Assembly: GCA_963816185.1 (NCBI GenBank)
Contig: CAWFJJ010000001.1
Span: 320,001-384,000 of the forward strand
Direction of reading: 5' to 3'
Source of the DNA: Thermoanaerobaculia bacterium
GTDB lineage: Bacteria; Acidobacteriota; Thermoanaerobaculia; UBA5066
Length of the DNA stretch: 64,000 nucleotides
Shown here piece after piece: positions 18,458 through 60,047 of the stretch (position 1 is the first letter of the stretch; the number at the start of each line of letters is the position of its first letter). The position numbers and the translations under genes are program-made. A model generated the notes under the pieces. It worked only from the letters and a program-made list of their open reading frames with translations. It did not search any database and was not told the DNA's origin.

Positions 18458-18811
18458 ATGCACGTGGAAGTGCGCAAGACCGGCGACGTCGTGATCGTCG
18501 ACCTCCAGGGCCGCCTCCTCGCGGGAGTCGGCGACGAGATCCTCCGCGACGTCATGAACGAGCTCCTCGCCGAGGGCTGGAGGAAGATCCTGCTCAACCT
18601 CTCCGAGGTGACCGCGATCGACAGCGCGGGGACGGGCGAGCTCGTCGCAAGCCACAAGATCTGCGAGCGATTCGGGGCGAAGCTCAAGCTCCTGAACCTG
18701 CACGAACGGGTGCGCAAGAGCCTGCACCTCGCTCAGCTCCTTCCCGTCTTCGAGGTCTACGACGAGGAGCGCGTTGCCCTCCGACACTACGGAGAGAGGA
18801 AGGCCCCCTGA
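18458..18811 (+). CDS. STAS-domain anti-sigma factor antagonist
   Basis: ILLNLSEVTAIDSAGTGELV; 117 aa. Confidence 0.9.
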   Translation: MHVEVRKTGDVVIVDLQGRLLAGVGDEILRDVMNELLAEGWRKILLNLSEVTAIDSAGTGELVASHKICERFGAKLKLLNLHERVRKSLHLAQLLPVFEVYDEERVALRHYGERKAP

Positions 18812-18833
18812 TTCCGGGCCTTTCCGGAGGGCC

Positions 18834-21451: not shown

Positions 21452-21784
21452 GTGAGAGCTGGTCTCGTCCGCGTCGCCGTGCTGGCCCTGCTCGCGCCGC
21501 TGGCGCTGGGCGGAGCGTTCGGGCACGTCGACGGCTTCGAGGTCCTCTCGCACGGCGCACACCTCTTCGCTCCCGACCATCCGGCCCACGCTCCGTTCGT
21601 CCCCGAGAAGGAACACCCGTGCGCAGCATGCGCCGTCGCGAATCTGACGCCTCCTGCTTTTGCGACCCTCCTCCTCGTTCCGCCGATCGTGGGGATCACT
21701 CGCGAGACGCAGTGGTCTTGGAGGGCGCCGACGCCCGCGCTTCCGGAACTCACTGGCCGCTCTCCGCCTATCCCGACCGCGTAG
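21452..21784 (+). CDS. Leader ORF 1 (110 aa): signal-like N-terminus, His-rich/CAAC core, C-terminal RSPP; DUF2946/CruR-like putative arrest peptide
   Basis: C-terminal part of track ORF 20201..21784; GTG 21452 lies 8 nt after TAAACT; paralog of 31965..32303 and 34991..35326. Confidence 0.8.
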   Translation: MRAGLVRVAVLALLAPLALGGAFGHVDGFEVLSHGAHLFAPDHPAHAPFVPEKEHPCAACAVANLTPPAFATLLLVPPIVGITRETQWSWRAPTPALPELTGRSPPIPTA

Positions 21785-21847
21785 ACGTTTTTCATTTCGT
21801 CCACGGTCGGGAGGCATAGCGCCTCCCCAATCGACACTCAGGGAGGC
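21766..21847 (+). promoter_or_regulatory. Putative four-segment translational attenuator (1:2 + 3:4 versus 2:3)
   Basis: TCCCGACCG 21771-79 pairs CGGTCGGGA 21804-12; GGGAGGC 21809-15 pairs GCCTCCC 21821-27, which alternatively pairs the SD GGGAGGC 21841-47. Confidence 0.65.
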
Positions 21848-21855
21848 TCGAAGAC

Positions 21856-22995: not shown

Positions 22996-23005
22996 GGAAG
23001 GTTTC

Positions 23006-23920
23006 ATGAAAACGTTCAAGCTTCTGTTCGCCGCCCTTCTCCTTTCCTTCGCCTCGCCTCTCCTGGCGAAGATCCACGTCGTGTCGTCCCTCCAGGACTT
23101 CGCCTCGATCGCGGAGGCGATCGGGGGCGACCGGGTGGAGACGTACGCGCTGGCGAAGGGATATCAGGACCCGCATTTCGTGGACGCCAAGCCCTCGTTC
23201 ATCCTGAAGCTTTCCCGCGCCGACGTCCTGATCGTCGCCGGCCTCGAGCTCGAGATCGGATACCTGCCGCCGCTGATCGACCAGAGCCGCAACGACAGGA
23301 TTCACGTCGGCAGCGCCGGATATCTGGATGCTTCGATCGGCTGCGACATCCTCCAGCGGCCGACTCGGCAGGTCACACGCGCGATGGGTGACGTGCATCC
23401 GTACGGGAACCCGCACTACTGGACCGATCCGGAAAACGGCCGTGTGATCGCCTGGGCCGTCGCCGAGAAGCTGTCCGAGCTCGATCCCTCCGGGAAAGCC
23501 GTCTTCGAGAAGAACCTCGCCGCGTTCGAAGGGCTTCTGACCCAGAAAGAGAAGGAATGGAACGCGAAGATGGGTCCCTACGCGGGGACGAAGGTCGTGA
23601 CCTTCCACGACTCCTGGCCGAACTTCGCGAAGTACTTCAAGCTCGAAATCGCCGGGCACATCGAGCCGAAGCCGGGCATTCCGCCCACGCCCTCTCACAC
23701 ACTCGAGATCATCAACTTGATCCAGGCGCAGAAGATCCCGGTGATCCTCGTCGAACCCTACTTCGACAGCAAGACGCCGAAGTACATCGCACAGAAGACC
23801 GGCGCCGCGGTGGTCACGTTCTATCCGTCGGTCGGCGGGATACCGGAGATCAAGGACTACTTCGCGCTCTTCGATCACAACATCGACGCCTTCGTCGCGG
23901 CAAACAAGGCAAAGAAATAG
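23006..23920 (+). CDS. Metal ABC transporter substrate-binding protein (ZnuA/TroA family)
   Basis: QDPHFVDAKPS, GLELEIG, GDVHPYGNPHYWTDP, TFHDSW, IEPKPGIPPTPSH. Confidence 0.92.
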   Translation: MKTFKLLFAALLLSFASPLLAKIHVVSSLQDFASIAEAIGGDRVETYALAKGYQDPHFVDAKPSFILKLSRADVLIVAGLELEIGYLPPLIDQSRNDRIHVGSAGYLDASIGCDILQRPTRQVTRAMGDVHPYGNPHYWTDPENGRVIAWAVAEKLSELDPSGKAVFEKNLAAFEGLLTQKEKEWNAKMGPYAGTKVVTFHDSWPNFAKYFKLEIAGHIEPKPGIPPTPSHTLEIINLIQAQKIPVILVEPYFDSKTPKYIAQKTGAAVVTFYPSVGGIPEIKDYFALFDHNIDAFVAANKAKK

Positions 23921-23924
23921 ACAG

Positions 23925-24755
23925 ATGACGATCCTTCAGCTCCTCCTTCCTGCGTTCGTCGCGAGCCTCATCCTCACGGGAATCCACGCCTATCTCGGCG
24001 TTCACGTGGTCGAGCGGGGCGTCATCTTCGTGGACCTCTCGCTCGCGCAGATCGCGGCTCTCGGCACGACGGTCGCGTACCTCGCCGGATACGACCTGCA
24101 CTCCACGGCCGCTTACGTCTTCTCCCTCGGCTTCACGTTCCTAGGAGCCGCGATCTTCGCGTTCTCCCGCGTCCACCGTAAGACCCGCATCCCGCAGGAG
24201 GCGATCATCGGCATCGTCTACGCGGTCTCGGCGGCGGTCGCCATCCTCGTGATGTCGAAAGCGACGCAAGAGACGGAGCACCTGAAGGAGATGCTCGTCG
24301 GCAACATTCTTTCGGTGACGTGGGGGGAGCTGGCGAAGACCGCGTTTCTCTATTCCCTGGTGGGCCTGTTTCATTACATCTTCCGAAAGCGATTCCTCCT
24401 GATCTCGATGAACGAGCCGGAAGCGGAGCGGCAGGGCCTGAACATCCGGTGGTGGGACTTTCTCTTTTACATGTCCTTCGGATTCGTCGTGACGTCGTCG
24501 GTTGCGATCGCCGGCGTGCTCCTCGTCTTCTGCTTCCTCATCGTGCCTTCGGTGACCGCGATGCTCTTCGCCGAGCGGCTCGGGCCGAGACTCGCGATCG
24601 GCTGGACGATGGGAGTCGTCGTGTCGGCGCTCGGGGTGTGGTTCTCGTTTCAGCTCGACCTTCCGACCGGAGCGACCATCGTTGGAACCTTCGGGGCCGC
24701 GCTTCTCGTCATCGCGGGTTATCGGCGGGCGTTCCGGAAGCCGGCCGCCGCCTGA
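23925..24755 (+). CDS. Metal ABC transporter permease (ABC-3, ZnuB/MntB family)
   Basis: YLGVHVVERGVIFVDLSLAQIAALG, QEAIIGIVY, GVLLVFCFLIVP, LDLPTGATIV. Confidence 0.9.
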   Translation: MTILQLLLPAFVASLILTGIHAYLGVHVVERGVIFVDLSLAQIAALGTTVAYLAGYDLHSTAAYVFSLGFTFLGAAIFAFSRVHRKTRIPQEAIIGIVYAVSAAVAILVMSKATQETEHLKEMLVGNILSVTWGELAKTAFLYSLVGLFHYIFRKRFLLISMNEPEAERQGLNIRWWDFLFYMSFGFVVTSSVAIAGVLLVFCFLIVPSVTAMLFAERLGPRLAIGWTMGVVVSALGVWFSFQLDLPTGATIVGTFGAALLVIAGYRRAFRKPAAA

Positions 24756-24757
24756 CG

Positions 24758-25654
24758 TCACTTCGGCGCGCTCTCCGCCACGAGGCGCAGCTTCGTTCCG
24801 CCTCCGCGACCGTCGATGACGTACGTCGTGAACCGGGGAACGAGCCGGCCGGCCGTCTCGAGCCAGAGCCGCGAGCGCAGAAGAGCGGGGTCAGCGGCCG
24901 CTTCACGCGCGAGGGCGGCGAAGCGATTCGAGTCGCCTCGTGCCGCCTCGACGCGCTGAACGCGCACGGCCTCGGTGTCCTCGATCAGCGCTTGCGCCTC
25001 GCCCCGCGCCTTGGACGCGAGCTCGTCGGAATAGGCTCGCGCGTCGTTCTGAAGGCGCTCGCGGTCGGCCGCGGCGTTCTGCACGGACTGGAAGGCCGCA
25101 ATCACGGGGGGCGCAGGGTCGAGCGAACGCCAGGCTGCGGAGATCACGACGACGCCGAGCCTGCGGCCGTCCGCCTCGCGCTGAACGCGTGCACGAACTC
25201 TCTCCAGGAGGGCCGTTCGCCCGGACGAGAGGACGTCGTCCACCGGGCTCGCTCCGAGCTCCTCGGTCAGCGCCCGTTCGCCTTCCCGCTTCAGGACGCC
25301 CGACACATCGATGGCGCTGACCAGGAACCGGACCGGATCCGCGATCCGATACTGCAGGGCGCACTCGGCGACGAGGAGGTTCGTGTCCCCCGTGAGGAAG
25401 GAGCCGGCCTGCGCGGCGCCGCTCGAATTCGCGTCCGCGCCGCCCGCCGAGACCGTGAAGGTGCGCGTGACCTCCACGCGCACGATCCGGTCGACGAGGG
25501 GGATTCTCGTCCTCAGCCCGGGTCCGAGCGTCGCTTTCAGCGGAGAGCCGAAGCGGAAGACGACGGCCCGTTCCGCGGGCCCCACGAGGTATGACGACGA
25601 AAGGAGGACTGCGAGGCCGGCAGACGCCACGAGAACGAGCGCGACCCTCTTCAC
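24758..25654 (-). CDS. HflK-like SPFH/band-7 protein
   Basis: TM, then YLVGPAERAVVFRFG, LGPGL, FLTGDTNLL, YRIADP, VIAAFQSVQNA, ARGEA; GTGA overlap with the upstream gene. Confidence 0.85.
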   Translation of the reverse strand: MKRVALVLVASAGLAVLLSSSYLVGPAERAVVFRFGSPLKATLGPGLRTRIPLVDRIVRVEVTRTFTVSAGGADANSSGAAQAGSFLTGDTNLLVAECALQYRIADPVRFLVSAIDVSGVLKREGERALTEELGASPVDDVLSSGRTALLERVRARVQREADGRRLGVVVISAAWRSLDPAPPVIAAFQSVQNAAADRERLQNDARAYSDELASKARGEAQALIEDTEAVRVQRVEAARGDSNRFAALAREAAADPALLRSRLWLETAGRLVPRFTTYVIDGRGGGTKLRLVAESAPK

Positions 25655-26559
25655 TTGTGCGACTCCCGGGGGTTTGGCGGCCCGTCGACCAGAACCTTGA
25701 GCAGGGGAGAATCGGCCGGGAGCACCGCGGTCGTCCCAGTCGCGAGCATCTTCTCGTACGCGTCGAGGGCCTGGACCAGCCGGTACAGCTCCCGATCCTT
25801 CGCCGCGGCGGCGGCGTAGAGACGTGCCGCCTCGGCTTCCCCTGCGCCGCGGGCCTCGGCGGCCTTGCGCGTGGCGTCGGCGAGAAGCTTCGCCTTGTCG
25901 CGCTCGGCCTCCGCACGGATCCGCAGCGCCTGCTCCTCGCCTTCCGAGCGGAGGCGCCGGGCGATCCTCTCTCGCTCCGACCGCATTCGTTCGAAGACGC
26001 TGGCGAGGTTCTGTTCCGGGAATCCCAGCCTCTTCACCGCGAGCTCTTCGACGACGATGCCGTAATCCTCGGCCGCGCGGGACCGGACCCTGCCCTCGAC
26101 CGACGCGGCGAGGTCGGAGAGTTTCGCCTCGCCTGGCTTGGCGGAGATCAACTGGCTCATCGGGACGGTTCCAAGAGCCGCCGCGAGCTCCGAAGAGGAG
26201 AGATCCGCCAGGCGCGCTTCGGCCGCCTCGCGTCCGGCAAGGGTCTCGAGAAAACGCTTCGGATCGGCGATCCGCCACAAGAGGAAAGTCTCGACGGCGA
26301 GGTTCTTCTTGTCCTGCGTGAGGAACTCCGCGGCCGGCGGATCGAACGGCTGGAGGCGCTTGTCCAGACGTGTGACTCCGTCGACGAACGGCATTCGCAC
26401 GTGGAGACCCGCGTCCGTCACGATCTCGATGGGACGCCCGAACCGTGTGCGAACCACTTGCTCCGTCGCCTCCACGACATAGAGTGACCGCCATGCGACG
26501 AGTACGACGAGCAAGGCCCATGCGATCCGCGCGAGAGCTGCCCGATTCACTTTGATCAT
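25651..26559 (-). CDS. HflC-like SPFH protein
   Basis: LYVVEATEQVVRTRFGRP, AGLHVRMPF, FLTQDKKNL, WRIADP, VFERMRSERERIARRLRSEGEE, RGAGEAEAARLY. Confidence 0.88.
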   Translation of the reverse strand: MIKVNRAALARIAWALLVVLVAWRSLYVVEATEQVVRTRFGRPIEIVTDAGLHVRMPFVDGVTRLDKRLQPFDPPAAEFLTQDKKNLAVETFLLWRIADPKRFLETLAGREAAEARLADLSSSELAAALGTVPMSQLISAKPGEAKLSDLAASVEGRVRSRAAEDYGIVVEELAVKRLGFPEQNLASVFERMRSERERIARRLRSEGEEQALRIRAEAERDKAKLLADATRKAAEARGAGEAEAARLYAAAAAKDRELYRLVQALDAYEKMLATGTTAVLPADSPLLKVLVDGPPNPRESHK

Positions 26560-26566
26560 GAGGTCC

Positions 26567-28663
26567 TCATTCAGAAGGCGCCGCGGGAGGCTTCGTGGAA
26601 GTCGGCGCTGGAACGACTCCGGCCCGTCCGGGTGGCGTTATCCAGAGCTCGACGCCCGGGAATCGGCGTGGATCGGGAAGAATGAACTTGGGAGCCGCCC
26701 CAAGGGCGCGCGCCATCCGCTCCCAGTAGAGGCGCTGGGCGACGAGCCCTCCGAAGTGATGCGAAGACGCCGCGAGCTTCTCGAACACGTGTGCATCGGA
26801 GGCGGCCTGGCTCGTCACGAGAAGGCGCTGCGCGTCCGCAGCCAGGACTTGCCTGGCCGCCTCGCCCGCGGCAAGGCGTACGGTGGATTCCTGCTCGACG
26901 AGGGCCCGATTTCGCGTCGTCGTCCGGTCCTCGGCCGCAGAGGCCACGTCCCGGAAGGCCGCGTGCACCTCGTCCGGTGCGTGGACGTAGAGGAGCTCCA
27001 CGGCGAGCGCTTTCACGCCGAGCGTCTCCTCCAGGCGTGCCGCCTTTAGCCGGGCGAGAACTGCGCCTTCGACTCCTGCGCGGCCCGACGCGTAGAGCGC
27101 GTCGAGCTCGGTGCCGGCGATCTCCGACGTCATGGCCGCGCGGGCGACCCCCCGGAGCGATCGTTCGACGTCGGATGGCCCGAAGGCGAAGCGGGTGGGG
27201 TCGACGACACGCCACAAGATCGAGGCGGTGGCGTCGACGACGCTTTCGTCTCCCGTCACGTAACGGGATTCGGAAAGAACCCGATTCCCCGCCAGCGGAT
27301 ACAGATCCGCCGCGGCCTTTCCGGTCCGGTAGCCGAGTTCCAGGACATGCATGCGACCAACCGAGATGCGCCGCGAGATGCCGATCGGCCACGGAAGGAG
27401 CACGTGCCCGCCTGGCTCTCGTGGTTCTCCGACCGGACGCCCGAACGCAGTGACGATCCCACGCTCTCCGGGTCGCACGACGAAGAAGGCAGTCGAGACC
27501 CAGAAGACCAAGAGCACGAGACCAGCCATCCGCACGATCAGCCTCCACGGAATTCGCGGCCGCAGGACGCCGAGAAGAACGCGGGCCTCGCGGAGCCCGG
27601 CACGCATCTCGCCCCACGCGTGCTTGAAGCTGCCTCGCCTCACGCTGAGCACGAGAAGCACGACAAAGGCGAGCGCGGCGAGGATCTCCAGCCAGACGAG
27701 CGTGCCGCTCGGCGCTTCCGAGCCGGGCCCCATGAGCGTCGCGGCGCTGCGGGAGACCAGCGTGTCGAACGCCAGGCCGGCGAGCATCGCGACCGCGAAG
27801 ACCGCGCCGAGATAGAGAGCGAGGATCCGGCGGCCGAAGAGCCGTGCCACGACGGCCAGGGTCGGCAGGTTCGTCGCCGGGCCTGTGAGCATGTAGACGA
27901 GTCCGGCTCCGGGGCTCAACCCTTTCGCGATGAGGACCGCGGCGACAGGCGTCGAGCCGCTCGCGCACACGTAGGTCGGGATGCCCGCGAGGGCGGCCGC
28001 CGCCATGCCCAGGACGGGATTCGGAAAGAAGCGGGCGAGCGAGTCCGGTCCAAGACTGGCGTCGAGGAGCGCCGAGAGAACGAATGCGAGGGTCAGCCAG
28101 GGCGCCAGCTCGTCGAAGATCTCGACGAAGCCACGCCGAAGAGCGCGCTCGAACCTCTCGCGAAGAGAGGTTTCCCGTTGGGCCGATTCCGGCATTTCGT
28201 CCGGGGCTTCCGGGTGCTCCGGTTCCGGGTCTGTCACCGGCTCCGAATCCACCCGGCGACGCGCGGTCACGAGCGTGAGAACGCCCGCCACGAGGGCCGT
28301 TGCGACGGCGGCCACGGGCCGGGCGATCATCATGGCGGGGCCCAGGTAGCCGTATGTCAGAAGGATGGAATCGATTCCGGTCTCGGGAGTCGAGATCAGA
28401 AACGCGACGACCGCTCCCGGGCTGGCGCCCTTCCTCCGGAGCTCCCGCGCCGCCGGGACTACGCTGCACGAGCACAAGGGAAGCGGCACCCCGAGAAGCG
28501 TCCCGAGGAAGACCGGTCGAAGACCGCCGCCGCCGAGAAGGTGAGTGATCCGGTCGGCGCGAACGAACTCGGCGAGGATGCCGGCCAGAAGGAAGCCGCC
28601 CAGGAGGAACAGGCTTCCGCCCAGGAAGACTCGGATCAGCGCCGACGTGAAAGTTCCGATCAT
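26567..28663 (-). CDS. DUF318/ArsP-type (SO_0444-like) permease fused to a C-terminal HflK-like SPFH domain
   Basis: GVPLPLCSCSVVP, AFLISTPETGIDS, GIPTYVCASGSTP, GLSPGAGLVYMLTGPATN; then FVVRPGERGIVTAFG, YVTGDESVVD, HAPDEVHAAFRDVASAAED, all in one frame; ATGA overlap at 28660-28663. Confidence 0.85.
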   Translation of the reverse strand: MIGTFTSALIRVFLGGSLFLLGGFLLAGILAEFVRADRITHLLGGGGLRPVFLGTLLGVPLPLCSCSVVPAARELRRKGASPGAVVAFLISTPETGIDSILLTYGYLGPAMMIARPVAAVATALVAGVLTLVTARRRVDSEPVTDPEPEHPEAPDEMPESAQRETSLRERFERALRRGFVEIFDELAPWLTLAFVLSALLDASLGPDSLARFFPNPVLGMAAAALAGIPTYVCASGSTPVAAVLIAKGLSPGAGLVYMLTGPATNLPTLAVVARLFGRRILALYLGAVFAVAMLAGLAFDTLVSRSAATLMGPGSEAPSGTLVWLEILAALAFVVLLVLSVRRGSFKHAWGEMRAGLREARVLLGVLRPRIPWRLIVRMAGLVLLVFWVSTAFFVVRPGERGIVTAFGRPVGEPREPGGHVLLPWPIGISRRISVGRMHVLELGYRTGKAAADLYPLAGNRVLSESRYVTGDESVVDATASILWRVVDPTRFAFGPSDVERSLRGVARAAMTSEIAGTELDALYASGRAGVEGAVLARLKAARLEETLGVKALAVELLYVHAPDEVHAAFRDVASAAEDRTTTRNRALVEQESTVRLAAGEAARQVLAADAQRLLVTSQAASDAHVFEKLAASSHHFGGLVAQRLYWERMARALGAAPKFILPDPRRFPGVELWITPPGRAGVVPAPTSTKPPAAPSE

Positions 28664-29373
28664 GACTTCGAGAGGACGATTGCGAGGTAGATGACGACCG
28701 CCCCGAAGACGGACATCAGGCTCGTCACGACCTTGGGGTGGCGATGGTGGCTCTCGGGAATCAGATCGCTCGCGCCGATGAAGAGAAAGAACCCGCAGAA
28801 CAGGGCGAGGAGGATTCCGAGGTGATCCTCCCTCAGCGAGAGGAACGTGGTGGCGAGGACGCCTGCGATCGGAGCCGCCGCGTCGAGCAGGAGCCACCGA
28901 AACGCGGTGCGGCGGTTTTCCGCGCCCCTGAGGACCACGCCCACGGTGTTGATGCCGTCCGAGAAGTCGTGGGCCACGACCGCGATCGCGACGACGACCC
29001 CCACCGCCGCTGAGGCCTGAAAGGCGAAGCCGAGCCCCACGCCGTCGAGGATGCTGTGACACACGAGGCTGCCCGCTCCGAGCCACGTCGGTGTGTGCAC
29101 ATGCTCGTCGTCTCCATGCGCGTGCAAGAGGAGCGTCCGGCTCAGAAGCATGTAAAGGAGGAATCCCGTCGCGACGATGGCGGTGACCGCCGGTGTCCCG
29201 TATCGCTTGCCCCCGAGCTCGAGGGCTTCCGGGAGGAGGTCGAAAAACGCGACCCCGATGACGGCGCCGGCGCTGAATCCGAGGATGAGATGCAGCTTGT
29301 CCTGCCGCTTGAGCGCCAGGAGGCCGCCGGCTAGCGTGGCCAGCCCGGCGGCGCAGCCTAGGAGGAGGACCAT
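28660..29373 (-). CDS. ZIP-family metal transporter (ZupT-like)
   Basis: LGFSAGAVIGVAFFDLLPEA, HAHGDDEHVH loop, HSILDG, AHDFSDG, ASDLIPESH. Confidence 0.88.
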   Translation of the reverse strand: MVLLLGCAAGLATLAGGLLALKRQDKLHLILGFSAGAVIGVAFFDLLPEALELGGKRYGTPAVTAIVATGFLLYMLLSRTLLLHAHGDDEHVHTPTWLGAGSLVCHSILDGVGLGFAFQASAAVGVVVAIAVVAHDFSDGINTVGVVLRGAENRRTAFRWLLLDAAAPIAGVLATTFLSLREDHLGILLALFCGFFLFIGASDLIPESHHRHPKVVTSLMSVFGAVVIYLAIVLSKS

Positions 29374-29391
29374 GAGCCAGCCCTGACCTCC

Positions 29392-29416
29392 GACGGGGGC
29401 GAAAGCCCGCCCCCGT
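29392..29416 (-). other. Intergenic GC hairpin with UUCG-type loop between TBDR and ZIP genes
   Basis: Minus strand GACGGGGCGGGC-TTTC-GCCCCCGTC; no U-tract, so an RNA stability or pausing element is more likely than an intrinsic terminator. Confidence 0.4.
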
Positions 29417-29439
29417 CTGGAGCTCGCATCGACGCGCCC

Positions 29440-31878
29440 CTAGAACTCAAACTTGATCCGCGCCGCCCACGTCCGCGGCGGAACCACGTGCGTACCTCCG
29501 AAAACGGACTGGAAGTTGTAGAGCCCCTTGACGTCGAAGGCGTTCAGGAGATCGCCCTGCAGCTCGAACGGGAGGCCGTATTTCTGGAGGCGCGCGCCGA
29601 GCGAGAAGCTCCAGATCGTGCGCGACTTGACGCGCTGGGGGTCCTCGTCGAACCGGATGTACGGCGCCGCGTACGCGGTGTCCGGGCTCGAGAGGACGTC
29701 GTCGATCGTGCCCGCGTCCGTGACGAGGCCCGAGTCGTAGCGTTGCGTCATGCCGGCCCAGAGGCCGGTCTGGCCGAAGTCGTAGAAGAAGCCGGCCTGC
29801 TCCTGGATGTCCTGGTCGTGGTCGATCAGGAAGCAGCCGCCGCCGAGGGTGTCGAGGGCGCCGGCGTCGAGGAATAGCCCGCCGACGAACGGGTTGCAGT
29901 ACTCCGCGTGCACGTGACCGACCGAGACGTAGCCCCTCAGGCCGCCGAGGACTGGCGCGAGGTCGAGCCGCGCGTTCCAGCCGTTCAGATTCCCGCTCTC
30001 GAAGTTGAGCGGAAAGACGATTCCCGTGTTGAAGAACTGATCCTGGTCGGCCGCGTTCTTCACCTTGCGATACCAGTACGAGACGTCGAGGCGCAGCTTC
30101 GATCCGATTCCCTGTTGGATCCCGGCGTTGTACACATCGTGCCGTTCGGAGAGATTGAAGAGCTGGCCGCCGCCGAGCGCCTGCGCGTCCTGGATCTCAG
30201 GCGGGGCGACCGATCTCGCCTGCGCGGAAGAGGACAAGAGGATGTTCTCGTACTCGGGCGTGATGAACATGCGGTTGTACGAGGCGCGGAACACGGTGCT
30301 CGTCGCCTCGAGGAGATACGCAACGCCGATGCGCGGCTGGAGCTGGCTCTCGGAAAGGAAGAGCTCGTTGTGGTCGAAGCGTACGCCGGCGTTCACGGTG
30401 AGGCCGTTCCACCGGATGTTGTCCTGCAGATACGCCGCGACGTACGTTCCCGTCTTCGAGTCGGCGAACTGGAAAACCGAGCCGCCGCGCGTGAGGTCGT
30501 ACGGCGCCAGGTTCGGGTTGTAGCCATCGGCGTTTGGGTCGTTGAAACCGGGGTCCGTGATGCCGAACGTGAACTGCTCCCGGATCGGAAAGCGTTTCGC
30601 CTGAACCCCGACCTTGAGCTCGTTGATACCCGCCGTCTTCGAAAGCGCGAAATTGATTCCCTGATTCTCGAGAGACCGGTTCTGGTCGGCCTGGACGGGC
30701 GTGTCGTAGGGCGAGGAATAGAGCGTCAGGCGGTTATCGCGACCGTAGGCCTGCCCCTCGACCACCCAGCCGCCGGGGAGAACGTTCTGATAGCCGAGGT
30801 TCGCGTTCCAGTCGTTGGACTGGATGCGCTGGTCCTGGCCGGCAACCTCCTGCGAGGGCAGGTTCGTGACATCACGTTTCGTCCGGCCGATGTTGCTCGT
30901 CAGGCGCCAGGAGGTCGACTCGTCCGCGGAGACGGCGTCGAGGCGGATGAAGGCCCGCAGCGAGTTGCCGACGTTGTGGAAGCTGTCGAACGACACGGGG
31001 TCGAGGAACCGATCGGAACGGGAGCCGTCGGCATCCGCGAACCATCCGAACCGCGCATTCCCGCCGCCGGCGGAGGCCGAAGCCGAGCCCGTGTTGAATC
31101 GTGCGCCTCCCACCGTCACGTCGCCTTTCACGCCGTTCGTTCCGAGGCCGGAGCGCGTCGTCAGGTTGATCACGCCGTTCGCCTTCTCGCCGTACTCCGC
31201 CGGGATGCCGCCCGTGACGACTTCGAGGCTCTGCGCGACGCTCGGATCCAGGGAGTTCGAGAACGTGATGCCGATCTGGTCCCCGATCGGCTGTCCGTCG
31301 ATGACGAGGAGCTGCTGAGAGTGCCCGCCCTGGAAGTGATAGCGGCCGTTCTCGTCCTGAGAGAAGCCCGGCGTCGAGGTCACGATCGACTCGAACGCCC
31401 GCCCCGGCACGGCGGCCGCGGTCCTCTGGATGAGCGACTTGTCGATGTCGATGTGGGTCATGGCCGTGTCGCTTTCCAGCTCGACGCCCTCCTTCTCGGC
31501 CGTCACGGACTCGGCCGCCGTCGTCTCGATCCCGAGCGAGATCTCGCGCGTCACGGGGACGCTCCCTCGCACATCCACGTCGGTGTGAAACGGGGTGAAG
31601 CCCTGCAGATTCGCCGTGAGGTGATACGGGTTCGGGGGCACGTTGTAGAAGAGGTAGCTTCCGTCGCCTCCCGACGTGGTCTGCTGCCGGTACCCGGTGA
31701 TGTCGTTCGCGAGAACGACCGTAACGCCCGGAAGAGGCTTGCCGTCCGGGCCGGCAACGTGTCCGCGGATCTGGCCGCCAGTGGCGGTCGACGCGGACGC
31801 CGGGTGCGAGCCGATGAAAAGGACCGCGAAGAGAAACGAGACAAATGCGGCGCTGCGCGCCGCGCTTCGAAAAGTCAT
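29440..31878 (-). CDS. TonB-dependent receptor with N-terminal carboxypeptidase-regulatory-like domain
   Basis: GQIRGHVAGPDGKPLPGVTV, VVTGGIPAEYG..GVINLTTRSG, LTVNAGVRFD, C-terminal ...ARIKFEF; Cys/His in loops (HVHAEYC, GGCFLIDHDQ); ATG 31878 with GTGGAGG SD. Confidence 0.9.
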   Translation of the reverse strand: MTFRSAARSAAFVSFLFAVLFIGSHPASASTATGGQIRGHVAGPDGKPLPGVTVVLANDITGYRQQTTSGGDGSYLFYNVPPNPYHLTANLQGFTPFHTDVDVRGSVPVTREISLGIETTAAESVTAEKEGVELESDTAMTHIDIDKSLIQRTAAAVPGRAFESIVTSTPGFSQDENGRYHFQGGHSQQLLVIDGQPIGDQIGITFSNSLDPSVAQSLEVVTGGIPAEYGEKANGVINLTTRSGLGTNGVKGDVTVGGARFNTGSASASAGGGNARFGWFADADGSRSDRFLDPVSFDSFHNVGNSLRAFIRLDAVSADESTSWRLTSNIGRTKRDVTNLPSQEVAGQDQRIQSNDWNANLGYQNVLPGGWVVEGQAYGRDNRLTLYSSPYDTPVQADQNRSLENQGINFALSKTAGINELKVGVQAKRFPIREQFTFGITDPGFNDPNADGYNPNLAPYDLTRGGSVFQFADSKTGTYVAAYLQDNIRWNGLTVNAGVRFDHNELFLSESQLQPRIGVAYLLEATSTVFRASYNRMFITPEYENILLSSSAQARSVAPPEIQDAQALGGGQLFNLSERHDVYNAGIQQGIGSKLRLDVSYWYRKVKNAADQDQFFNTGIVFPLNFESGNLNGWNARLDLAPVLGGLRGYVSVGHVHAEYCNPFVGGLFLDAGALDTLGGGCFLIDHDQDIQEQAGFFYDFGQTGLWAGMTQRYDSGLVTDAGTIDDVLSSPDTAYAAPYIRFDEDPQRVKSRTIWSFSLGARLQKYGLPFELQGDLLNAFDVKGLYNFQSVFGGTHVVPPRTWAARIKFEF

Positions 31879-31889
31879 GTCAGTCGATG

Positions 31890-31980
31890 CCTCCACGAAG
31901 AAAGCCTCTGATCGCGGAGGGTGCGTACCCCCCGACCGTGAATGACGACGTCGGAACGTGTCTTCTAAACGGCCAGGGAG
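31890..31980 (-). promoter_or_regulatory. Putative four-segment translational attenuator downstream of leader ORF 2
   Basis: mRNA CUCCCUGGCCGU (31980-69) pairs ACGGUCGGGGGG (31939-28); CGGGGGGU pairs ACCCUCCG (31922-15); CCUCCGCGA (31920-12) pairs UCGUGGAGG containing the SD (31898-90). Confidence 0.68.
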
Positions 31981-32303
31981 ACGGGGGGCGCGCGGGCGGG
32001 AAGCTCGGGAGCGGGGGCGAAGGTGATAGTCCGCTCGGCGCGGATCTCGAGCGCGCGGCGGACCTCGGGTGGGACGAGGAAGAGCGGTGCGGCTGTGGGT
32101 GCTACCAGCGAGGCGATCGCGCAGGCCGCGCAGGGGTGCTCCTTCTCCGGCACGAACGGCGCATGCGCGGGATGGTCCGGCGGGAAGAGGAACGTGCCGT
32201 GCGACAGCGTCTCGAAGCCGTCGACGTGCCCGAACGCGCCGCCGAGAGCGATCGGCGCGAGGGCGAGGACGACCAGCAGGCGCCGGAACCGGGTCAATCG
32301 CAC
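31965..32303 (-). CDS. Leader ORF 2 (112 aa): His-rich/CAAC core, C-terminal RAPP; DUF2946/CruR-like putative arrest peptide
   Basis: ...HVDGFETLSHGTFLFPPDHPAHAPFVPEKEHPCAAC...PELPARAPPVSLAV; lies 86 nt upstream of the TBDR; TAGGAT 6 nt before GTG. Confidence 0.85.
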   Translation of the reverse strand: MRLTRFRRLLVVLALAPIALGGAFGHVDGFETLSHGTFLFPPDHPAHAPFVPEKEHPCAACAIASLVAPTAAPLFLVPPEVRRALEIRAERTITFAPAPELPARAPPVSLAV

Positions 32304-32338
32304 CCTTGAATCCTACACGAGCCCATTCTTCGAACCTC

Positions 32339-34426
32339 TTACGGAAGGATCGTTCTCGGGTCGTTCGTGGTGTTGTCGATGACCGCGGCATACGTCGCGA
32401 TCTGCGCGCCGGCCGTCGCGGTCGACACGACGAGGACCGCGTTCGTCGTGCCGAAAGGCGCGAGAAGCGTGGTGACGACGTTGCCGACCTGCGTCATCCC
32501 GAGCGGGGGCAGCGTCCGGGTCGTGGTGCCGAAAGTCGAGCCGTCCGCAGCGAGCAGCGTGAGCGTGACGTCCACGCTCAAGGCCGTCGCGTTCGCGAGG
32601 ACGACGTTCGTGCGGAATGCCGTGTCGTCACGAAGGCCGATGAGCGCTTTGGGCGTGCCCGGCATGACGAGGTCGTTCGCGCCCTCGGCCGGAACGGACT
32701 GGCCGAAAGTGCCGGCGCCGCCCGCCGCCGGTGTCGAGGTCTGGCTGACCACTTTGAGCGACGCCGAGTCGGCTGTGATCAAGATCGCGCCATAGTTCTG
32801 GGGATCCGTGGGGCTGACCCCGAAGAGCGAGGCGAGAATGTCGGCATAGGTCACGGCCTTGTTCGCCGCGAGCGCGCGGACCTGCTTCGGGCCCCCGGTG
32901 CCGTCCTGGTCGTGGCCCAGGAACTGGAGCGTGAGATTCGCGTCCGTCGTGCCGCGGTTCGCGATCGTCAGGTCCGTCGTGTAGAAGGCGCCGTTCTTGC
33001 CGGCGGCGTGGGCGCTCGAGGGCAGGATGTACGTGGTCGTCGGGCCGCCCGAGCCGGCGAACCAGCCGATGTCGTTGAACAGGGGAAGTGTGGCGTCGAC
33101 TCCGCTCGGCAGGTCGGACGAGATGTACGGCTCCATGAGAAGGCTCGGGGACGCCGTCGAGTCGAAGTGCGACACCGACGAACCCTGTACATACGGGTTC
33201 GGTGCGTAGAGAAGCAGGCGGCCGGCGGCGTCCGTGCCGGCGAGAAGCGTCGGGTCCGTACCCAGATTTGCCGAATCGGGCAGGTTCGCGCGGAGGGTCG
33301 CGCCGTCGCTCATGGTGACGAGGATGGACGGGATCGTGATCGTGGCGTCCGTGCCGGACATTCCGAACAGAGGCTCGGTCGTGTTGTCCGCGATGATGGC
33401 GCCGATCGCGCCCGCGTTCTGGGCGTTCTTGGCCTTGACTGTAAAATTACAGGTTCCGCGGTCGATGAGCGCGATCTGGCCGGAGACATTCGACGTGATC
33501 GGGCTGCACCCGTCCGTGGCGAATCCGTAGAGGGCCGCGACGATCTGCCCGGTGACGCCCGGGTTTGAGAGCGCCGGCCCGAAGGAGGCGGTGCCGACGG
33601 AGTAGGAGCCGGACGCCGCCCCAGCGGTCACGAGAAGGCGCCGCCTCTTGCCGAGATACGTGCCCGCGAACGCGTTCGCCGCCGTCCCCGACCACGTCAG
33701 GTTGCCCGTGTTGAGCTCGGACGCCGCGCGCTCGGCGTCCGTGAGCTTGTCCCACGTCTTACCGAGCGTGTCGTCGTAGATGAAGCGGTCGAAGATGGTC
33801 GGCTGCGGCGTCGGCTGCGATGACGTGCTGCCGAGGAGCGCGCCCGTCGAATCCACGCCCGAGAAGAACCCGAGCCCGTGGGCGAACTCGTGTACGGCGA
33901 CCGAGAGGAAATTGATGTCCGACCCGGCGAGGTTGTCGAGGCCGAGGTAAAACGAGAGACCCGTCAGGCAGCCTGTCTGTCCGAGGCTGCTGTTGAAACG
34001 CGCCGTCATGTCGACCGTGGCGGGGTCCTGGTCAGAACCCACGAACTTGTTCGCGAGAGCCTTCGCGTACCACGTTCCCGCGACGGGGGCACCCGCAAAA
34101 TCGGCGTAGACCGTATTCGCGTAGGTCGATCCGAGGATGCCGGAGGTCGCGCTGCACGCGAGGGGAGTAAAGCTCGCGCTCACGCGGATCGTGACATTGC
34201 TCGTCAGGAGCCCTCCCCAGATCGCGCCGGCCTGCTGGAATACGTTGAGGCGTTGCTGCCCGAGCGTCGTGCCCGTGTTGCCGCCGACGGGCGAGACCGG
34301 AGTCGGGTCGTTGAGGCCGGTTCCCGCAGGATCGGAATTGACGATGACGAAAGCCGCGCCGGCGAAAAGCGGCCGGGCGGCGAGAGACGCAAGGAGGAGG
34401 AGCGGCAAGAGCGAGCGTCGCGCCAT
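32339..34426 (-). CDS. Secreted zinc metallopeptidase with PA domain and lineage-type C-terminal domain
   Basis: Signal peptide; VAVHEFAHGLGF (HExxHxxG); PA domain IALIDRGTCNFTVKAKNAQNAGAIGAII; GSSVSHFD, LMEP; C-terminal ...YAAVIDNTTNDP. Confidence 0.85.
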   Translation of the reverse strand: MARRSLLPLLLLASLAARPLFAGAAFVIVNSDPAGTGLNDPTPVSPVGGNTGTTLGQQRLNVFQQAGAIWGGLLTSNVTIRVSASFTPLACSATSGILGSTYANTVYADFAGAPVAGTWYAKALANKFVGSDQDPATVDMTARFNSSLGQTGCLTGLSFYLGLDNLAGSDINFLSVAVHEFAHGLGFFSGVDSTGALLGSTSSQPTPQPTIFDRFIYDDTLGKTWDKLTDAERAASELNTGNLTWSGTAANAFAGTYLGKRRRLLVTAGAASGSYSVGTASFGPALSNPGVTGQIVAALYGFATDGCSPITSNVSGQIALIDRGTCNFTVKAKNAQNAGAIGAIIADNTTEPLFGMSGTDATITIPSILVTMSDGATLRANLPDSANLGTDPTLLAGTDAAGRLLLYAPNPYVQGSSVSHFDSTASPSLLMEPYISSDLPSGVDATLPLFNDIGWFAGSGGPTTTYILPSSAHAAGKNGAFYTTDLTIANRGTTDANLTLQFLGHDQDGTGGPKQVRALAANKAVTYADILASLFGVSPTDPQNYGAILITADSASLKVVSQTSTPAAGGAGTFGQSVPAEGANDLVMPGTPKALIGLRDDTAFRTNVVLANATALSVDVTLTLLAADGSTFGTTTRTLPPLGMTQVGNVVTTLLAPFGTTNAVLVVSTATAGAQIATYAAVIDNTTNDPRTILP

Positions 34427-34433
34427 GTTTCGC

Positions 34434-34898
34434 CTATTTCTCCCGGCTCGCGGGGGGCGGGGCGGGCTGGGGCGAGGCCTCGAGGAAGATTCGCGCCTCG
34501 TCGGCGCCGCGAACGCAGGCGCTCGTGAGGGTTCCGTCCGGGTTCTTCCGGATTACGGAAAGGCTGGCCTGATCCGGGCCGAGCCGCATCATCTTCGTTC
34601 CGTCCGGCAACGTGATGACCTGCGGCTCGGCCGCGACCAGAGGGCGTCGTCCGAGAAGCTGGCGGGCCTCTTCGGGGGTCAGGGGACGGAGTGCTCCGGT
34701 CACGGGATCGCGCGCCACGGTCAGGGAGATCCCGGGCGCGGCCGAGGGCTTCACCGTAGCGGGAGCCGCAGCCTTCCTCGTTGCGGACTCCTTCGGCGCA
34801 GCGCTTGTCGCGGGCTCGTCCGCGCGGGCCGGGAAAGAGAGGAGAAGAAAGACGAGAATCGAAGGGGCGGAATGTCGCGCCGTTCGGAGGAGGATCAT
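34434..34898 (-). CDS. Small secreted protein (post-PEP-CTERM-1-like), partner of the PA peptidase
   Basis: Signal peptide; VARDPVTGALRPLTPEEARQL, LPDGT, KNPDGTLTSAC; AGGGAG SD. Confidence 0.65.
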   Translation of the reverse strand: MILLRTARHSAPSILVFLLLSFPARADEPATSAAPKESATRKAAAPATVKPSAAPGISLTVARDPVTGALRPLTPEEARQLLGRRPLVAAEPQVITLPDGTKMMRLGPDQASLSVIRKNPDGTLTSACVRGADEARIFLEASPQPAPPPASREK

Positions 34899-34990
34899 TT
34901 GTCTGGTCTCCCTATGTCGGCAAGAGCCTGCGCCGAGAGCGAGGCTGCTCGACCTTCGAAGAAATCCGTTTTACGACTGATGAAGGTCGG

Positions 34991-35326
34991 CTACGCGCGA
35001 GCCAGGCAGGGAGGGGAGCGTCCGGGAAGCTCGGGGAGAATTGGAGCGTGCTGCACGCGCTCGGCGTGAACCGGATGCGCGAGACGGATTTCGGGCGGAC
35101 TCAGGAAGAGGGGTGCGATGACCGGCGGCAGGAGGTTTGCTACCGCGCAGGCGGCGCACGGGTGCTCCTTCTCGGGCACGAACGGCGCGTGCGCGGGGTG
35201 GTCCGGCGGGAAGAGGAACGTGCCGTGCGACAGCGTCTCCAAGCCGTCGACGTGCCCGAACGCGCCGCCGAGAGCGATCGGCGCGAGGGCCGCGAGGACG
35301 ACGATCCGGAAGAGCCGCCTTTTCAT
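34991..35326 (-). CDS. Leader ORF 3 (111 aa): His-rich/CAAC core, C-terminal RSPP; paralog of leaders 1 and 2
   Basis: Core nearly identical to leader 2, with mostly third-position changes; PELPGRSPPCLARA; TAGAAT 10 nt before ATG. Confidence 0.85.
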   Translation of the reverse strand: MKRRLFRIVVLAALAPIALGGAFGHVDGLETLSHGTFLFPPDHPAHAPFVPEKEHPCAACAVANLLPPVIAPLFLSPPEIRLAHPVHAERVQHAPILPELPGRSPPCLARA

Positions 35327-35866: not shown

Positions 35867-36868
35867 GTGAAGACGGTCAAGGTGTTTCGCTTTCTATGTC
35901 TCGTCCCCGCAGCTTTTCTCGTTCTCCCCTCGAACGCCGGCCTGGCCTGCGCCTGCGGCTGCAGCGTGTTCGACGTCGGCGCCGGCACGATGATGCCGGT
36001 GAGCTCCGAGTCAGGTTTCTCTCTCTGGCTCCGCTACAGCTACATGAACCAGAACCGGAACTGGGAGGGCGGCTCCCGGGCGCCGGCCTCGGACAACCCG
36101 GACGTCCAGATCAAGACCAGCTTCTACACCTTCGGAGGCAGCTACATGGTGGACCGGTCCTGGTCCGTGATGGCCGAGCTGCCGGTCTATTCCCGCAAGT
36201 TCACGTCGACCGACGACGGCACCGTCGCCGGCCCGGCCGGCAGCCTCTACACCGCCAATCTGACCGATCTCGGCGACATGTCGCTCTCGGTCATGTACAC
36301 GGGGTTCTCACCGGACATGTCGACCGGGCTTGGCCTCGGCGTCAAGCTGCCGACGGGCAACTACACGGGGCCGTCCGGCCCGCTCGGCGGCTCGGAGTTC
36401 GACCGCGACACGCTGCCCGGCACGGGCAGCACCGATCTCGTGCTGGGCTCCTATCACGTCGGCGGGCTCAATTCCGACGGCTCGCTCGCCTGGTTCGCGC
36501 AGGCGCGGTACGAGTTCGCGGCCTTCACCCGGAACGACTACCGACCCGGCAACGACCTGAACGGCGCGCTCGGGTTGACGTGGAGTTTCAGCGCCGGCGC
36601 GTCGCAGACGAGGATGACGCCGGTCCTGCAGATGATCGGAAGCTACCGGGAAAGAGACAGCGGCGCCAACTCGGACCCGGACAACTCCGGATACAAACGC
36701 CTGCTCCTCGCGCCTGGCGTCGAGGCGCGGCTCGGGAAGATCCGTCTCTACGCCGACGTCGAATTTCCCGTGTATCAATTCACCAACGCCGCGGCGAGCG
36801 GGAGCGACAAGGCGGGGCAGCTCGTGGCGTCGACGTTTCTCAAGGCGCAGATCGCGTACGATTTCTAG
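35867..36868 (+). CDS. Putative outer-membrane beta-barrel (MetA/phenol-pathway-like transporter) with N-terminal CACGC motif
   Basis: Signal peptide then ACACGCS; DLGDMSL, GLGVKLPTG, PGTGSTD; C-terminal aromatic QIAYDF. Confidence 0.7.
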   Translation: MKTVKVFRFLCLVPAAFLVLPSNAGLACACGCSVFDVGAGTMMPVSSESGFSLWLRYSYMNQNRNWEGGSRAPASDNPDVQIKTSFYTFGGSYMVDRSWSVMAELPVYSRKFTSTDDGTVAGPAGSLYTANLTDLGDMSLSVMYTGFSPDMSTGLGLGVKLPTGNYTGPSGPLGGSEFDRDTLPGTGSTDLVLGSYHVGGLNSDGSLAWFAQARYEFAAFTRNDYRPGNDLNGALGLTWSFSAGASQTRMTPVLQMIGSYRERDSGANSDPDNSGYKRLLLAPGVEARLGKIRLYADVEFPVYQFTNAAASGSDKAGQLVASTFLKAQIAYDF

Positions 36869-36903
36869 ACGGCCGACGGCATGGGAGAGAACGGATTGTG
36901 AAA

Positions 36904-37416
36904 ATGACGCGCTCGGTCCTGACTTCCGCAGTGATCCTCGCGATGCTGGCCGGTCCGGCCGCGGGCGCGCCCGCGCTCGGCGAGCCGGCGCCGGCGCTCG
37001 TCGTGCCCCTGATCGATGGCGCAGGATTCGATCTCGGCGTGCTCCGCGGCAAGGTCGTGATCGTGAATTTCTGGGCGACGTGGTGCCCGCCGTGCCGGAA
37101 GGAGATGCAAGCACTCGACGCCTTCTTCGCCCGGTTCCACGCCCGCGGCGTCGAGATGGTCGGAACGAGCGTCGATCGCAAGCGGGACCGCAAGGCCGTG
37201 CTCAAGGCGGCGCGGGCGGTGCGCTATCCCGTCGCGCTTCTGGCCGACGCCGTAGCCAACGGCTTCGGCAAGCCCGCCGTCCTGCCCGTGACCTACGTCG
37301 TCGATCGGGCGGGCGTCGTCCGCGCCGTCCTGACGCCAGACGCGGGTGCGGTCACCGAGAGCTCCCTCGAACAGACCGTGGCGCCCCTCCTTTCGGGCGG
37401 TCACCCCGGCCTCTAG
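36904..37416 (+). CDS. TlpA/ResA-family thiol-disulfide oxidoreductase
   Basis: LRGKVVIVNFWATWCPPCRKEM, LPVTYVVDRAG. Confidence 0.9.
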   Translation: MTRSVLTSAVILAMLAGPAAGAPALGEPAPALVVPLIDGAGFDLGVLRGKVVIVNFWATWCPPCRKEMQALDAFFARFHARGVEMVGTSVDRKRDRKAVLKAARAVRYPVALLADAVANGFGKPAVLPVTYVVDRAGVVRAVLTPDAGAVTESSLEQTVAPLLSGGHPGL

Positions 37417-59928: not shown

Positions 59929-60047
59929 GCTTGAGAGTGAACGCTGGGACGGCGAACTCACGGTCACGGCCTGCGAACCCCGAGGAAACTGGTGCAGATG
60001 CATCACTTCACCGACGCAGGCCAGCTGTCGACCTCTACTCCCTCGGA

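Follow-up and report, generated by a model that had tools for sequence, protein, structure and literature searches.

The stretch of DNA analysed here, called the window throughout, comprises 64,000 nucleotides (nt) from a Thermoanaerobaculia bacterium (GenBank assembly GCA_963816185.1, contig CAWFJJ010000001.1, positions 320,001 to 384,000 of the forward strand; 68% GC). On its minus strand a small open reading frame (ORF), leader 2, is followed after a spacer of 86 nt by the gene for a TonB-dependent receptor, and two paralogous ORFs, leaders 1 and 3, head further gene sets in the window (Table 1). Leader 2 ends in the presumed ribosome arrest motif R-A-P-P and a short tail. The tail codons and the spacer hold four segments that can pair in alternative ways, the last of them carrying the receptor gene's Shine-Dalgarno sequence (SD). 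We propose that leader 2 and its spacer may act as a stall-dependent translational attenuator, a reading to which we give slightly more than an even chance.

Leader 2 and the segments of its spacer

The N-terminus of leader 2 shows basic residues and then a hydrophobic stretch ending in GGAFG, an export signal by inspection only; the middle of the protein carries a His-rich stretch and the motif CAAC (CXXC). Behind R-A-P-P follow the five codons of the tail V-S-L-A-V (31982-31968) and the stop codon (31967-31965). In the predicted stalled ribosome the first Pro codon of R-A-P-P would presumably sit in the P site, by analogy with RAPP-like peptides, for which toeprinting places the codon of the third residue there (PMC10987492).

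A first-pass annotation of the sequence had described three helices on the minus-strand mRNA, and all of them were found where it had placed them. Helix 1:2 (12 base pairs (bp), three of them G-U) forms in the unconstrained minimum free energy (MFE) fold; the 8-bp hairpin 2:3 and the 9-bp helix 3:4, which holds the receptor SD GGAGG 11 nt ahead of the ATG (31878-31876), are also present. The three helices are mutually exclusive as an attenuator requires, with the SD in segment 4. In isolation, helix 1:2 with its inner hairpin reaches -27.8 kcal/mol and helix 3:4 reaches -15.3 kcal/mol (for hairpin 2:3 see Table 1). The unconstrained MFE of 31994-31862 combines 1:2 with 3:4, i.e. the OFF state with a paired SD, at -53.8 kcal/mol; enforcing 2:3 on the same stretch yields -42.1 kcal/mol. 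When the frame 31995-31870 is folded, the Pro codons CCCCCC, not CUCCCU, pair with the G-run and helix 3:4 is unchanged; the z-score of this fold is -2.37 and equal stability was seen in 4 of 200 shuffles. By geometry only, a stalled ribosome whose P site holds the first Pro codon and whose footprint extends to +15 would cover 31988-31973 and with it 8 of the 12 bases of segment 1.

Table 1. Leaders, target genes and RNA elements in the window (positions count from the first letter of the window).
Feature	Position	Strand	Remark
Leader 2, 112-aa ORF	31965..32303	-	C-terminus ...PELPARAPPVSLAV-stop
CXXC codons TGC GCG GCC TGC	32121..32132	-	42 residues ahead of R-A-P-P
R-A-P-P codons CGC GCG CCC CCC	31983..31994	-	presumed arrest site
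Segment 1, CUCCCUGGCCGU	31969..31980	-	tail codons; 99.1% of cells paired, nine orthologs
Small inner hairpin	31941..31964	-	enclosed by helix 1:2; in MFE; 87.3% of cells paired in 16-spacer alignment
Segment 2, ACGGUCGGGGGG	31928..31939	-	SD-like G-run (decoy); alternative partners: segment 1, or segment 3 via 31934-31927
Hairpin 2:3, CGGGGGGU-acgc-ACCCUCCG	31915..31934	-	8 bp; -12.8 kcal/mol
Segment 3, CCUCCGCGA	31912..31920	-	anti-SD
Segment 4, UCGUGGAGG	31890..31898	-	contains SD GGAGG (31894-31890)
TonB-dependent receptor gene	29440..31878	-	CarboxypepD_reg and Plug domains; presumed regulated target
ZIP/ZupT-like zinc transporter gene	28660..29373	-	3' of receptor gene
Leader 1, paralogous ORF	21452..21784	+	C-terminus ...PELTGRSPPIPTA-stop
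Leader-1 relay	21772..21847	+	CCCGACCG (21772-21779) pairs with CGGUCGGG (21804-21811)
Leader-1 hairpin GGGAGGC/GCCUCCC	21809..21827	+	
Leader-1 downstream SD GGGAGGC	21841..21847	+	ATG at 21856
Leader 3, paralogous ORF	34991..35326	-	C-terminus ...PELPGRSPPCLARA-stop
Leader-3 direct pairing	34908..35013	-	Pro codons CUCCCUG (35013-35007) with SD UAGGGAG (34914-34908), in MFE

Chance pairing was assessed with 1000 dinucleotide-preserving shuffles of all sequence upstream of the SD and 1000 shuffles of the spacer alone. A relay was counted if the SD pairs with a spacer partner, if an upstream segment takes over this partner upon removal of the stalled footprint, and if the same upstream segment is paired with the leader 3' end in the free fold. 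Six of the 1000 whole shuffles and 15 of the 1000 spacer-only shuffles gave this topology, so that the control for which the first-pass annotation had called found the four-segment pattern to be rare, not frequent. An MFE as low as the real one was reached by 12/1000 and 3/1000 shuffles, respectively. The motif CACGGTCGGG, said to be shared with the leader-1 spacer, indeed occurs in both leader-to-gene spacers (21802-21811(+) and 31931-31940(-)) and nowhere else in the window; its number of copies alone is not significant (two or more copies in 13 of 100 shuffles).

Nine distinct leader-2-type spacers (L001, L004, L005, L048, L050, L052, L053, L055, L056) are 94% identical overall. Their mean pairwise identity amounts to 98.3% in segment 2, 98.0% in segment 3 and 100% in segment 4, to 87% in the coding segment 1, and to 65% and 90.5% in the 2:3 and 3:4 loops. 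Third codon positions of the leader average 75%, and an ungapped comparison of the receptors, affected by indels, gives 63%. Because the stems are 98-100% identical as against 75% at the leader's third codon positions, purifying selection on the non-coding stems is indicated. Among these orthologs 99.5% of the cells of the OFF structure pair, with 16 of the 21 OFF pairs never varying, and hairpin 2:3 is paired in 100% of cells; its top pair is U-A in the window copy and C-G in the other eight.

A joint set was formed from these nine and seven leader-1-type spacers (n = 16), which share CGTC..CACGGTCGGG.GG. The RNAalifold consensus of the 16 is again 1:2 plus 3:4, which bears out the claim that one attenuator topology recurs behind both leaders. 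In this alignment 93.7% of cells are paired, compared with 37-59% when the partners are slid, and the covariation score is 0.231, compared with 0.08-0.12; neither value was reached by any of 500 shuffles. The 2:3 hairpins of the two groups lie in registers one column apart, and since the registers are shifted by one, this hairpin is kept by slippage, not pair by pair. A joint 2:3 hairpin count over both paralog groups was dropped on account of the same shift.

The leader family and its gene sets

The genome holds three leader paralogs, all of them inside the window. Of the 28 genomes of the genus, 27 carry a leader homolog; among the 151 relatives searched 32 do, and a metagenome scan added 62 further leader loci. 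A profile search of 1.84 billion representatives returned only 22 proteins at E up to 0.001, and the inspected ones share the leader architecture. The best 120 of 219 word-indexed protein matches carry no Pfam domain and are, where named, hypothetical proteins of Thermoanaerobaculia or Acidobacteriota. In a 20-member alignment C58, C61, R104, P106 and P107 are invariant, and the whole of leader 2 is conserved, not its C-terminus alone. The family C-terminus reads G/A-R-S/A-P-P and continues for 3-6 residues. RSPP, one of the motifs clustered with RAPP upstream ORFs in PMC10987492, is the common form of the arrest motif and RAPP is restricted to the leader-2 lineage. If distant relatives are included, RAPP or RSPP (RGPP once) stands 1-6 residues ahead of the stop; CXXC was also found in 15 distant relatives. 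In five homologs (L029, L034, L041, L042, L043) an apparent frameshift or a fusion with the downstream frame has removed the in-frame C-terminal RxPP; these are either pseudogenised copies or assembly errors.

The RNA design of the family was compared in 73 distinct sequences covering the leader 3' end through the spacer, each folded over a stretch that begins at the Arg codon and ends 15 nt beyond the start. The comparison excluded loci whose leader lacks an in-frame C-terminal RxPP (L029, L034, L041, L042, L045), the out-of-frame fragment of L043, loci to which no downstream start could be assigned (L030, L035), metagenome loci truncated by the contig end (L049, L077, L107), loci with no start found (L065, L066, L070, L098, L100) or with an ambiguous start (L093, L094, L096), and 15 exact duplicates. 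Partition-function folds give the downstream SD a pairing probability above 0.8 in 66/73 loci. Its main partner is the stall footprint (22 nt, first Pro codon) in 52/73 and a spacer anti-SD in 19/73, the latter group including leaders 1 and 2. With the footprint masked, opening the SD costs 4.69 instead of 8.69 kcal/mol on average (shuffles, 20 per sequence: 6.48 instead of 6.77), and the drop amounts to at least 2 kcal/mol in 59/73 loci.

The arrest site shows a strong bias in codon use. For the first Pro, CCT is used in 56/73 loci, a twelve-fold excess over 59/1000 among the other Pro codons of these ORFs; CCT also encodes the second Pro in 37/73, and Ser is TCT in 32/62 compared with 16/343. 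The anti-SD CCTCC accordingly falls within the footprint in 62/73 loci, compared with 6.3% of background 22-nt windows, and the 11 loci without it are mostly of the relay type, leaders 1 and 2 among them. Duplexes between arrest window and SD average -16.68 kcal/mol for cognate and -15.53 kcal/mol for non-cognate combinations (1 of 5000 permutations as good, a figure inflated by relatedness), and the arrest window is the single best SD partner within its own ORF in only 23/73. For 20 spacers of the commonest type RNAalifold recovers a Pro-codon:SD helix, a stop-codon helix and a central hairpin, with two-sided changes in 6/17 pairs.

Leader 1 carries a relay like that of leader 2: its free MFE is 1:2 plus 3:4 and its stalled MFE is 2:3, and one heptamer, GGGAGGC, makes up both segment 2 and the SD, which compete for GCCUCCC. 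Behind leader 3, the direct pairing of the Pro codons with the SD suggested by the first-pass annotation is present in the MFE; this SD serves a 154-aa gene starting at 34898, and 0.79 of its pairing probability falls on the stall footprint. Relays of unrelated sequence occur in L083 and L012 and, less clean, in L033. The P379-type spacers L015 and L072 combine direct pairing with an independent SD-like hairpin. In the longer spacers (92-131 nt) there is a conserved element of the form GAAGAAAGAGAUUUCUUAGAAGGUGA, in which a small A/U hairpin precedes the SD-like GAAGGUGA. Such elements are seen at 34951-34966 (-) and in the spacers of L007, L010, L013, L059, L071 and L073, at some distance upstream of the real SD; they might represent a standby site or a tiny ORF.

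The three leader-headed gene sets span 21452-24755 (+) and 28660-35326 (-), and all of them look zinc-related; the majority of the NCBIfam matches behind the neighbour-gene annotations are under their cut-offs. Downstream of leader 1 lie genes for a 379-aa outer-membrane-type protein, a ZnuA/AztC-like binding protein and an ABC-3 permease, and downstream of leader 3 those for a 154-aa post-PEP-CTERM-1 domain protein and a PA-domain HExxH metalloprotease. Receptor orthologs directly follow the leader in 13 related loci. The stop codon of the PA-domain metalloprotease gene is only 35 nt upstream of leader 2, which is not obviously its operon's first gene; because of this short distance, leaders 3 and 2 may share one long transcript. 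Promoter prediction found none around leader 2, and the terminator scan gave a single terminator-like site, within the receptor coding region, with no excess over shuffle expectation. Hairpin 2:3 was rejected as an intrinsic terminator, being without a U-tract. Rfam covariance models had no match in 31700-32400 at E up to 1.

Several further genes lie in the same region. Divergent from and upstream of leader 3 is an AhpC/TSA-thioredoxin-like gene (35896-37416 (+)); AhpC_TSA genes are among the listed partners of cruR operons (PMC9426467). Downstream of the ZIP gene, 24758-26521 (-) and 26567-29086 (-) cover a gene for an SPFH/Band-7 protein and a long ORF, which in translation resembles a multi-pass permease joined to an SPFH-like region; the 26571-28475 portion of this ORF has no match in Pfam. 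A C-terminal domain of ~230 aa, like residues 461-695 of the PA-domain protein, also matches a frame upstream of leader 1 (28% identical), the location of the GSDH-domain ORF 18774-21416. Finally, big tandem paralogous ORFs with near-identical C-terminal halves are found at 57115-60006, 60685-62274 and 62437-63564 (all -).

Proposed switch model and rival explanations

Under the proposed mechanism leader 2 would be a CruR/CutF-like regulatory upstream ORF whose nascent peptide is exported and metal-binding (CXXC, His-rich). Its C-terminal R-A-P-P would arrest the ribosome, and metal would act on the nascent CXXC/His peptide. In the OFF state of the free mRNA, the tail codons (segment 1) would bind the G-run (segment 2) and thereby leave the CCUCC anti-SD (segment 3) available to sequester the receptor SD (segment 4), so that the receptor would stay untranslated. 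In the ON state, a ribosome dwelling on the Pro codons would cover segment 1, newly made segment 2 would capture segment 3 as a local hairpin, and the SD would be open for initiation. Dwell time on the last codons would decide whether nascent segment 2 meets segment 1 or segment 3. Leader 2 would represent a relay variant; in most members the arrest codons themselves (CCU-CCN = CCUCC) would serve as anti-SD. We infer that arrest at R-A-P-P occurs and that a metal relieves it, with the polarity of CruR, uptake genes being off when the metal is plentiful. Zinc is the probable metal because of the ZupT-like, ZnuA/AztC-like and ABC-3 neighbours, and the CruR polarity appears sensible because the targets look like uptake genes.

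For leader 2, removal of the 22-nt footprint reduces the SD opening cost from 9.3 to 5.1 kcal/mol, and none of 20 shuffles drops as much. If 30 nt of upstream leader are included in the folds, the means over the 73 loci go from 8.56 to 5.74 kcal/mol, with a drop of at least 2 kcal/mol in 46/73.

A number of results weigh against the attenuator. In isolation helix 3:4 is more stable than hairpin 2:3, the stalled MFE of leader 2 leaves the SD weakly paired with GCUUUC, and in L004, L036 and L021 the stalled MFE retains 3:4. With pairing to 30 nt of upstream leader allowed, masking takes leader 2 only from 7.7 to 7.0 kcal/mol, segment 2 then pairing with another C-rich partner; L005 shows no change, and 12/73 loci change by less than 0.5 kcal/mol. 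Since 2:3 is no stronger than 3:4 and masking barely opens the SD in this context, the choice between the two helices would have to be kinetic. Moreover, the SD becomes about as accessible with a terminating ribosome as with a stalled one (4.88 vs 4.68 kcal/mol), so that only dwell time would separate them. The compensatory changes announced by the first-pass annotation proved scarce: none of the 21 OFF pairs changed on both sides among the nine orthologs, only one of the eight hairpin pairs did (reached by 67/500 shuffles), and across the 16 spacers two-sided change affects 3/22 pairs, a level matched by 297/500 column shuffles. Pairing is highly maintained among homologs (93.7-100% of cells), but covariation is weak, with few two-sided changes. 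At the family level, Arg CGT is also enriched (20/73 vs 12/229), which fits a rare-codon or pyrimidine-tract effect and not SD pairing, and the 73-locus counts overstate independence because the loci are related. The inference that conserved structure supports a functional switch is thus supported in part, by the rare topology and the conserved stems, and is weakened by the poor covariation and by the small effect of masking with upstream leader present.

At least four of the five SD bases are paired in 696/1000 whole and 580/1000 spacer-only shuffles, a further point against a switch and one in favour of chance complementarity, as are the 68% GC of the window and the non-significant count of CACGGTCGGG. 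Because shuffled sequences often pair the SD and rarely give the relay, SD sequestration is ordinary in this GC context and the relay is not. With the relay in only 0.6-1.5% of shuffles, stems conserved at 98-100% against 75% at synonymous sites, and a consensus fold recovered across paralog groups, we consider chance pairing very improbable. There could also be no switch at all, leader 2 being an ordinary small periplasmic metal-binding protein, with RxPP serving the protein and with a constitutive spacer structure that keeps translation low or stabilises the mRNA. Conservation of the entire 112-aa protein, the frequent SD pairing in shuffles, the context-sensitive equilibrium model of leader 2 and its position only 35 nt past the preceding stop all agree with such a protein. 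It would leave unexplained, however, the twelve-fold CCT excess at the first Pro, the mutually exclusive helices that are rare in shuffles, and an RxPP that is invariant and 3-6 residues from the stop in every intact member; furthermore, CruR and CutF, of the same architecture, are regulatory (PMC9426467; PMC9973294). We therefore regard this explanation as improbable, if clearly less so than chance.

Control could instead be exerted by Rho, as in CruR. A stall would keep Rho from loading on the leader's C-rich 3' half, and its relief would lead to termination before the receptor gene, with the spacer helices accessory (pause or anti-termination) or incidental. Such a mechanism has been demonstrated in a case where a DUF2946 ORF precedes a TonB-dependent transporter (PMC9426467). 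Rho is encoded in the genome, the leader-2 mRNA at 32130-31980 contains 47-55% C and 23-28% G, and the codons of the arrest site form a pyrimidine tract (UCU CCU CCU in most relatives); the Arg CGT enrichment has no explanation in SD pairing. By itself Rho would explain neither the SD pairing in 66/73 loci, with the arrest codons in 52/73, nor the relay with its SD-like decoy and the near-invariant segments 3 and 4. We think Rho control unlikely, though a little less so than the ordinary-protein explanation; Rho and SD masking may also act together.

Comparison with known arrest systems

The architecture of leader 2 is that of the published DUF2946 arrest ORFs, and metal-sensing arrest ORFs that act via RNA on the gene behind them have already been published. 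Sequence comparison does not place the leaders in DUF2946: the PF11162 model had no match to leaders 2 and 3, none at E up to 10 among the 20 family members, and none in a six-frame search of the genome, and the NCBIfam library likewise yielded no sign of homology to DUF2946. Among 301 genomes of the phylum one has a PF11162 match, protein L110 (CPVC, 43 residues, RGPP), and hhalign of the leader-family profile against L110 was not significant (E = 0.32). The best Pfam scores of 16 distant relatives were to DUF2946 (E = 0.54, one protein) and DUF6153 (E = 0.02-0.04, two proteins). Sub-threshold DUF6153 matches (E = 0.016-0.04) were seen in P0129, P0134 and one member of the 20-member family alignment; they hint at DUF6153 as a further clade with this CXXC/RxPP leader design. 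In language-model features the nearest named clusters have PF11162 in 13-16% of members (scores 0.97 and 0.96), which is a lead and not a test. Because DUF2946 membership is not shown by sequence, we describe the leader family as CruR/CutF-like in its working and as a clade uncaptured by the Pfam model. The distance of 42 residues between CXXC and RxPP in leader 2 is near but outside the range in PMC9426467, about 45 give or take one or two; in L110 the distance is 43. In the accessible literature on DUF2946, RAPP and CutF no acidobacterial clade, arrest-codon anti-SD or four-segment relay is described, supplementary homolog lists not being covered; a zinc-regulon paper has DUF2946 genes in a table only, as far as its available text goes (PMC4176598).

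CruR-bfrG of Bordetella pertussis resembles leader 2 in its CXXC, its RAPP near the stop, its N-terminal export signal, its TonB-dependent transporter and its long structured spacer. In CruR, CXXC and RAPP are 45 residues apart, RAPP lies three residues from the C-terminus, the TonB-dependent transporter gene is downstream, and copper relieves a stall that governs Rho-dependent termination (PMC9426467). CruR thus works via Rho, and the available text describes no SD switch for it. The CXXC-RAPP spacing differs (45 as opposed to 42), as do the metal (copper, whereas the leader-family neighbours look zinc-related) and the arrest codons (frequent ones in CruR, rare NNU codons in the leader family). 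In CutF-cutO of Rhodobacter capsulatus the small exported protein likewise has a Cys metal motif and, at its C-terminus, a proline stall motif, and here an anti-SD hides the downstream SD, which stalling is proposed to open; in the published account stalling melts the stem-loop whose anti-SD shields the cutO SD (PMC9973294; preprint 10.1101/2025.02.05.636593). The CutF motifs, however, are CXXXC and PPP, not CXXC and R-A/S-P-P; CutF uses a single intergenic stem-loop, in contrast to arrest codons as anti-SD or the four-segment relay of leader 2 with its SD-like decoy; and copper induces the CutF stall to switch on a detoxifying oxidase, whereas the leader-family targets look like uptake genes. 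Both CruR and CutF are regulatory and barely detectable as proteins (PMC9426467; PMC9973294).

Metal-sensing arrest peptides such as CruR and CutF were described only between 2022 and 2025, in Proteobacteria and for copper. The leader locus extends this principle to Acidobacteriota, to a protein clade unrecognised by Pfam and to apparent zinc uptake genes, and it adds two RNA read-outs, arrest codons doubling as anti-SD and a four-segment relay. Our wider proposal is that arrest site and regulatory RNA are the same nucleotides, with the synonymous codon choice for R-S-P-P building a CCUCC anti-SD right beneath the stalled ribosome, so that the SD of the following gene would be laid open by the dwell time of one ribosome, that leader 2 employs a decoy-SD relay, and that the nascent peptide responds to zinc in place of copper, three operons at one locus forming a zinc-sensing regulon; we advance it tentatively and hold it to be somewhat less than probable. 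Three paralogous leaders with three spacer designs in one genome allow a direct comparison of how dwell time would be converted into translation initiation.

The four-segment logic itself is familiar from ermC-type attenuation, in which a stalled ribosome covers segment 1, 2:3 forms and segment 4 with its SD is freed. The ermC leader is a short peptide with a drug-dependent stall, unlike leader 2, a 112-aa exported protein with a predicted RAPP-type arrest. SecM-secA and the other RAPP-like monitoring substrates (RQH family) share the export signal, the C-terminal R-x-P-P/G arrest and an SD-masking structure (PMC10987492). These SecM-type systems control genes of the Sec/YidC machinery and sense translocation force, not metal-transport genes; the spacers of the leader family (57-131 nt), in turn, lead to a TonB-dependent receptor or to the 379-aa outer-membrane-type protein with a ZnuA-like protein and an ABC-3 permease.

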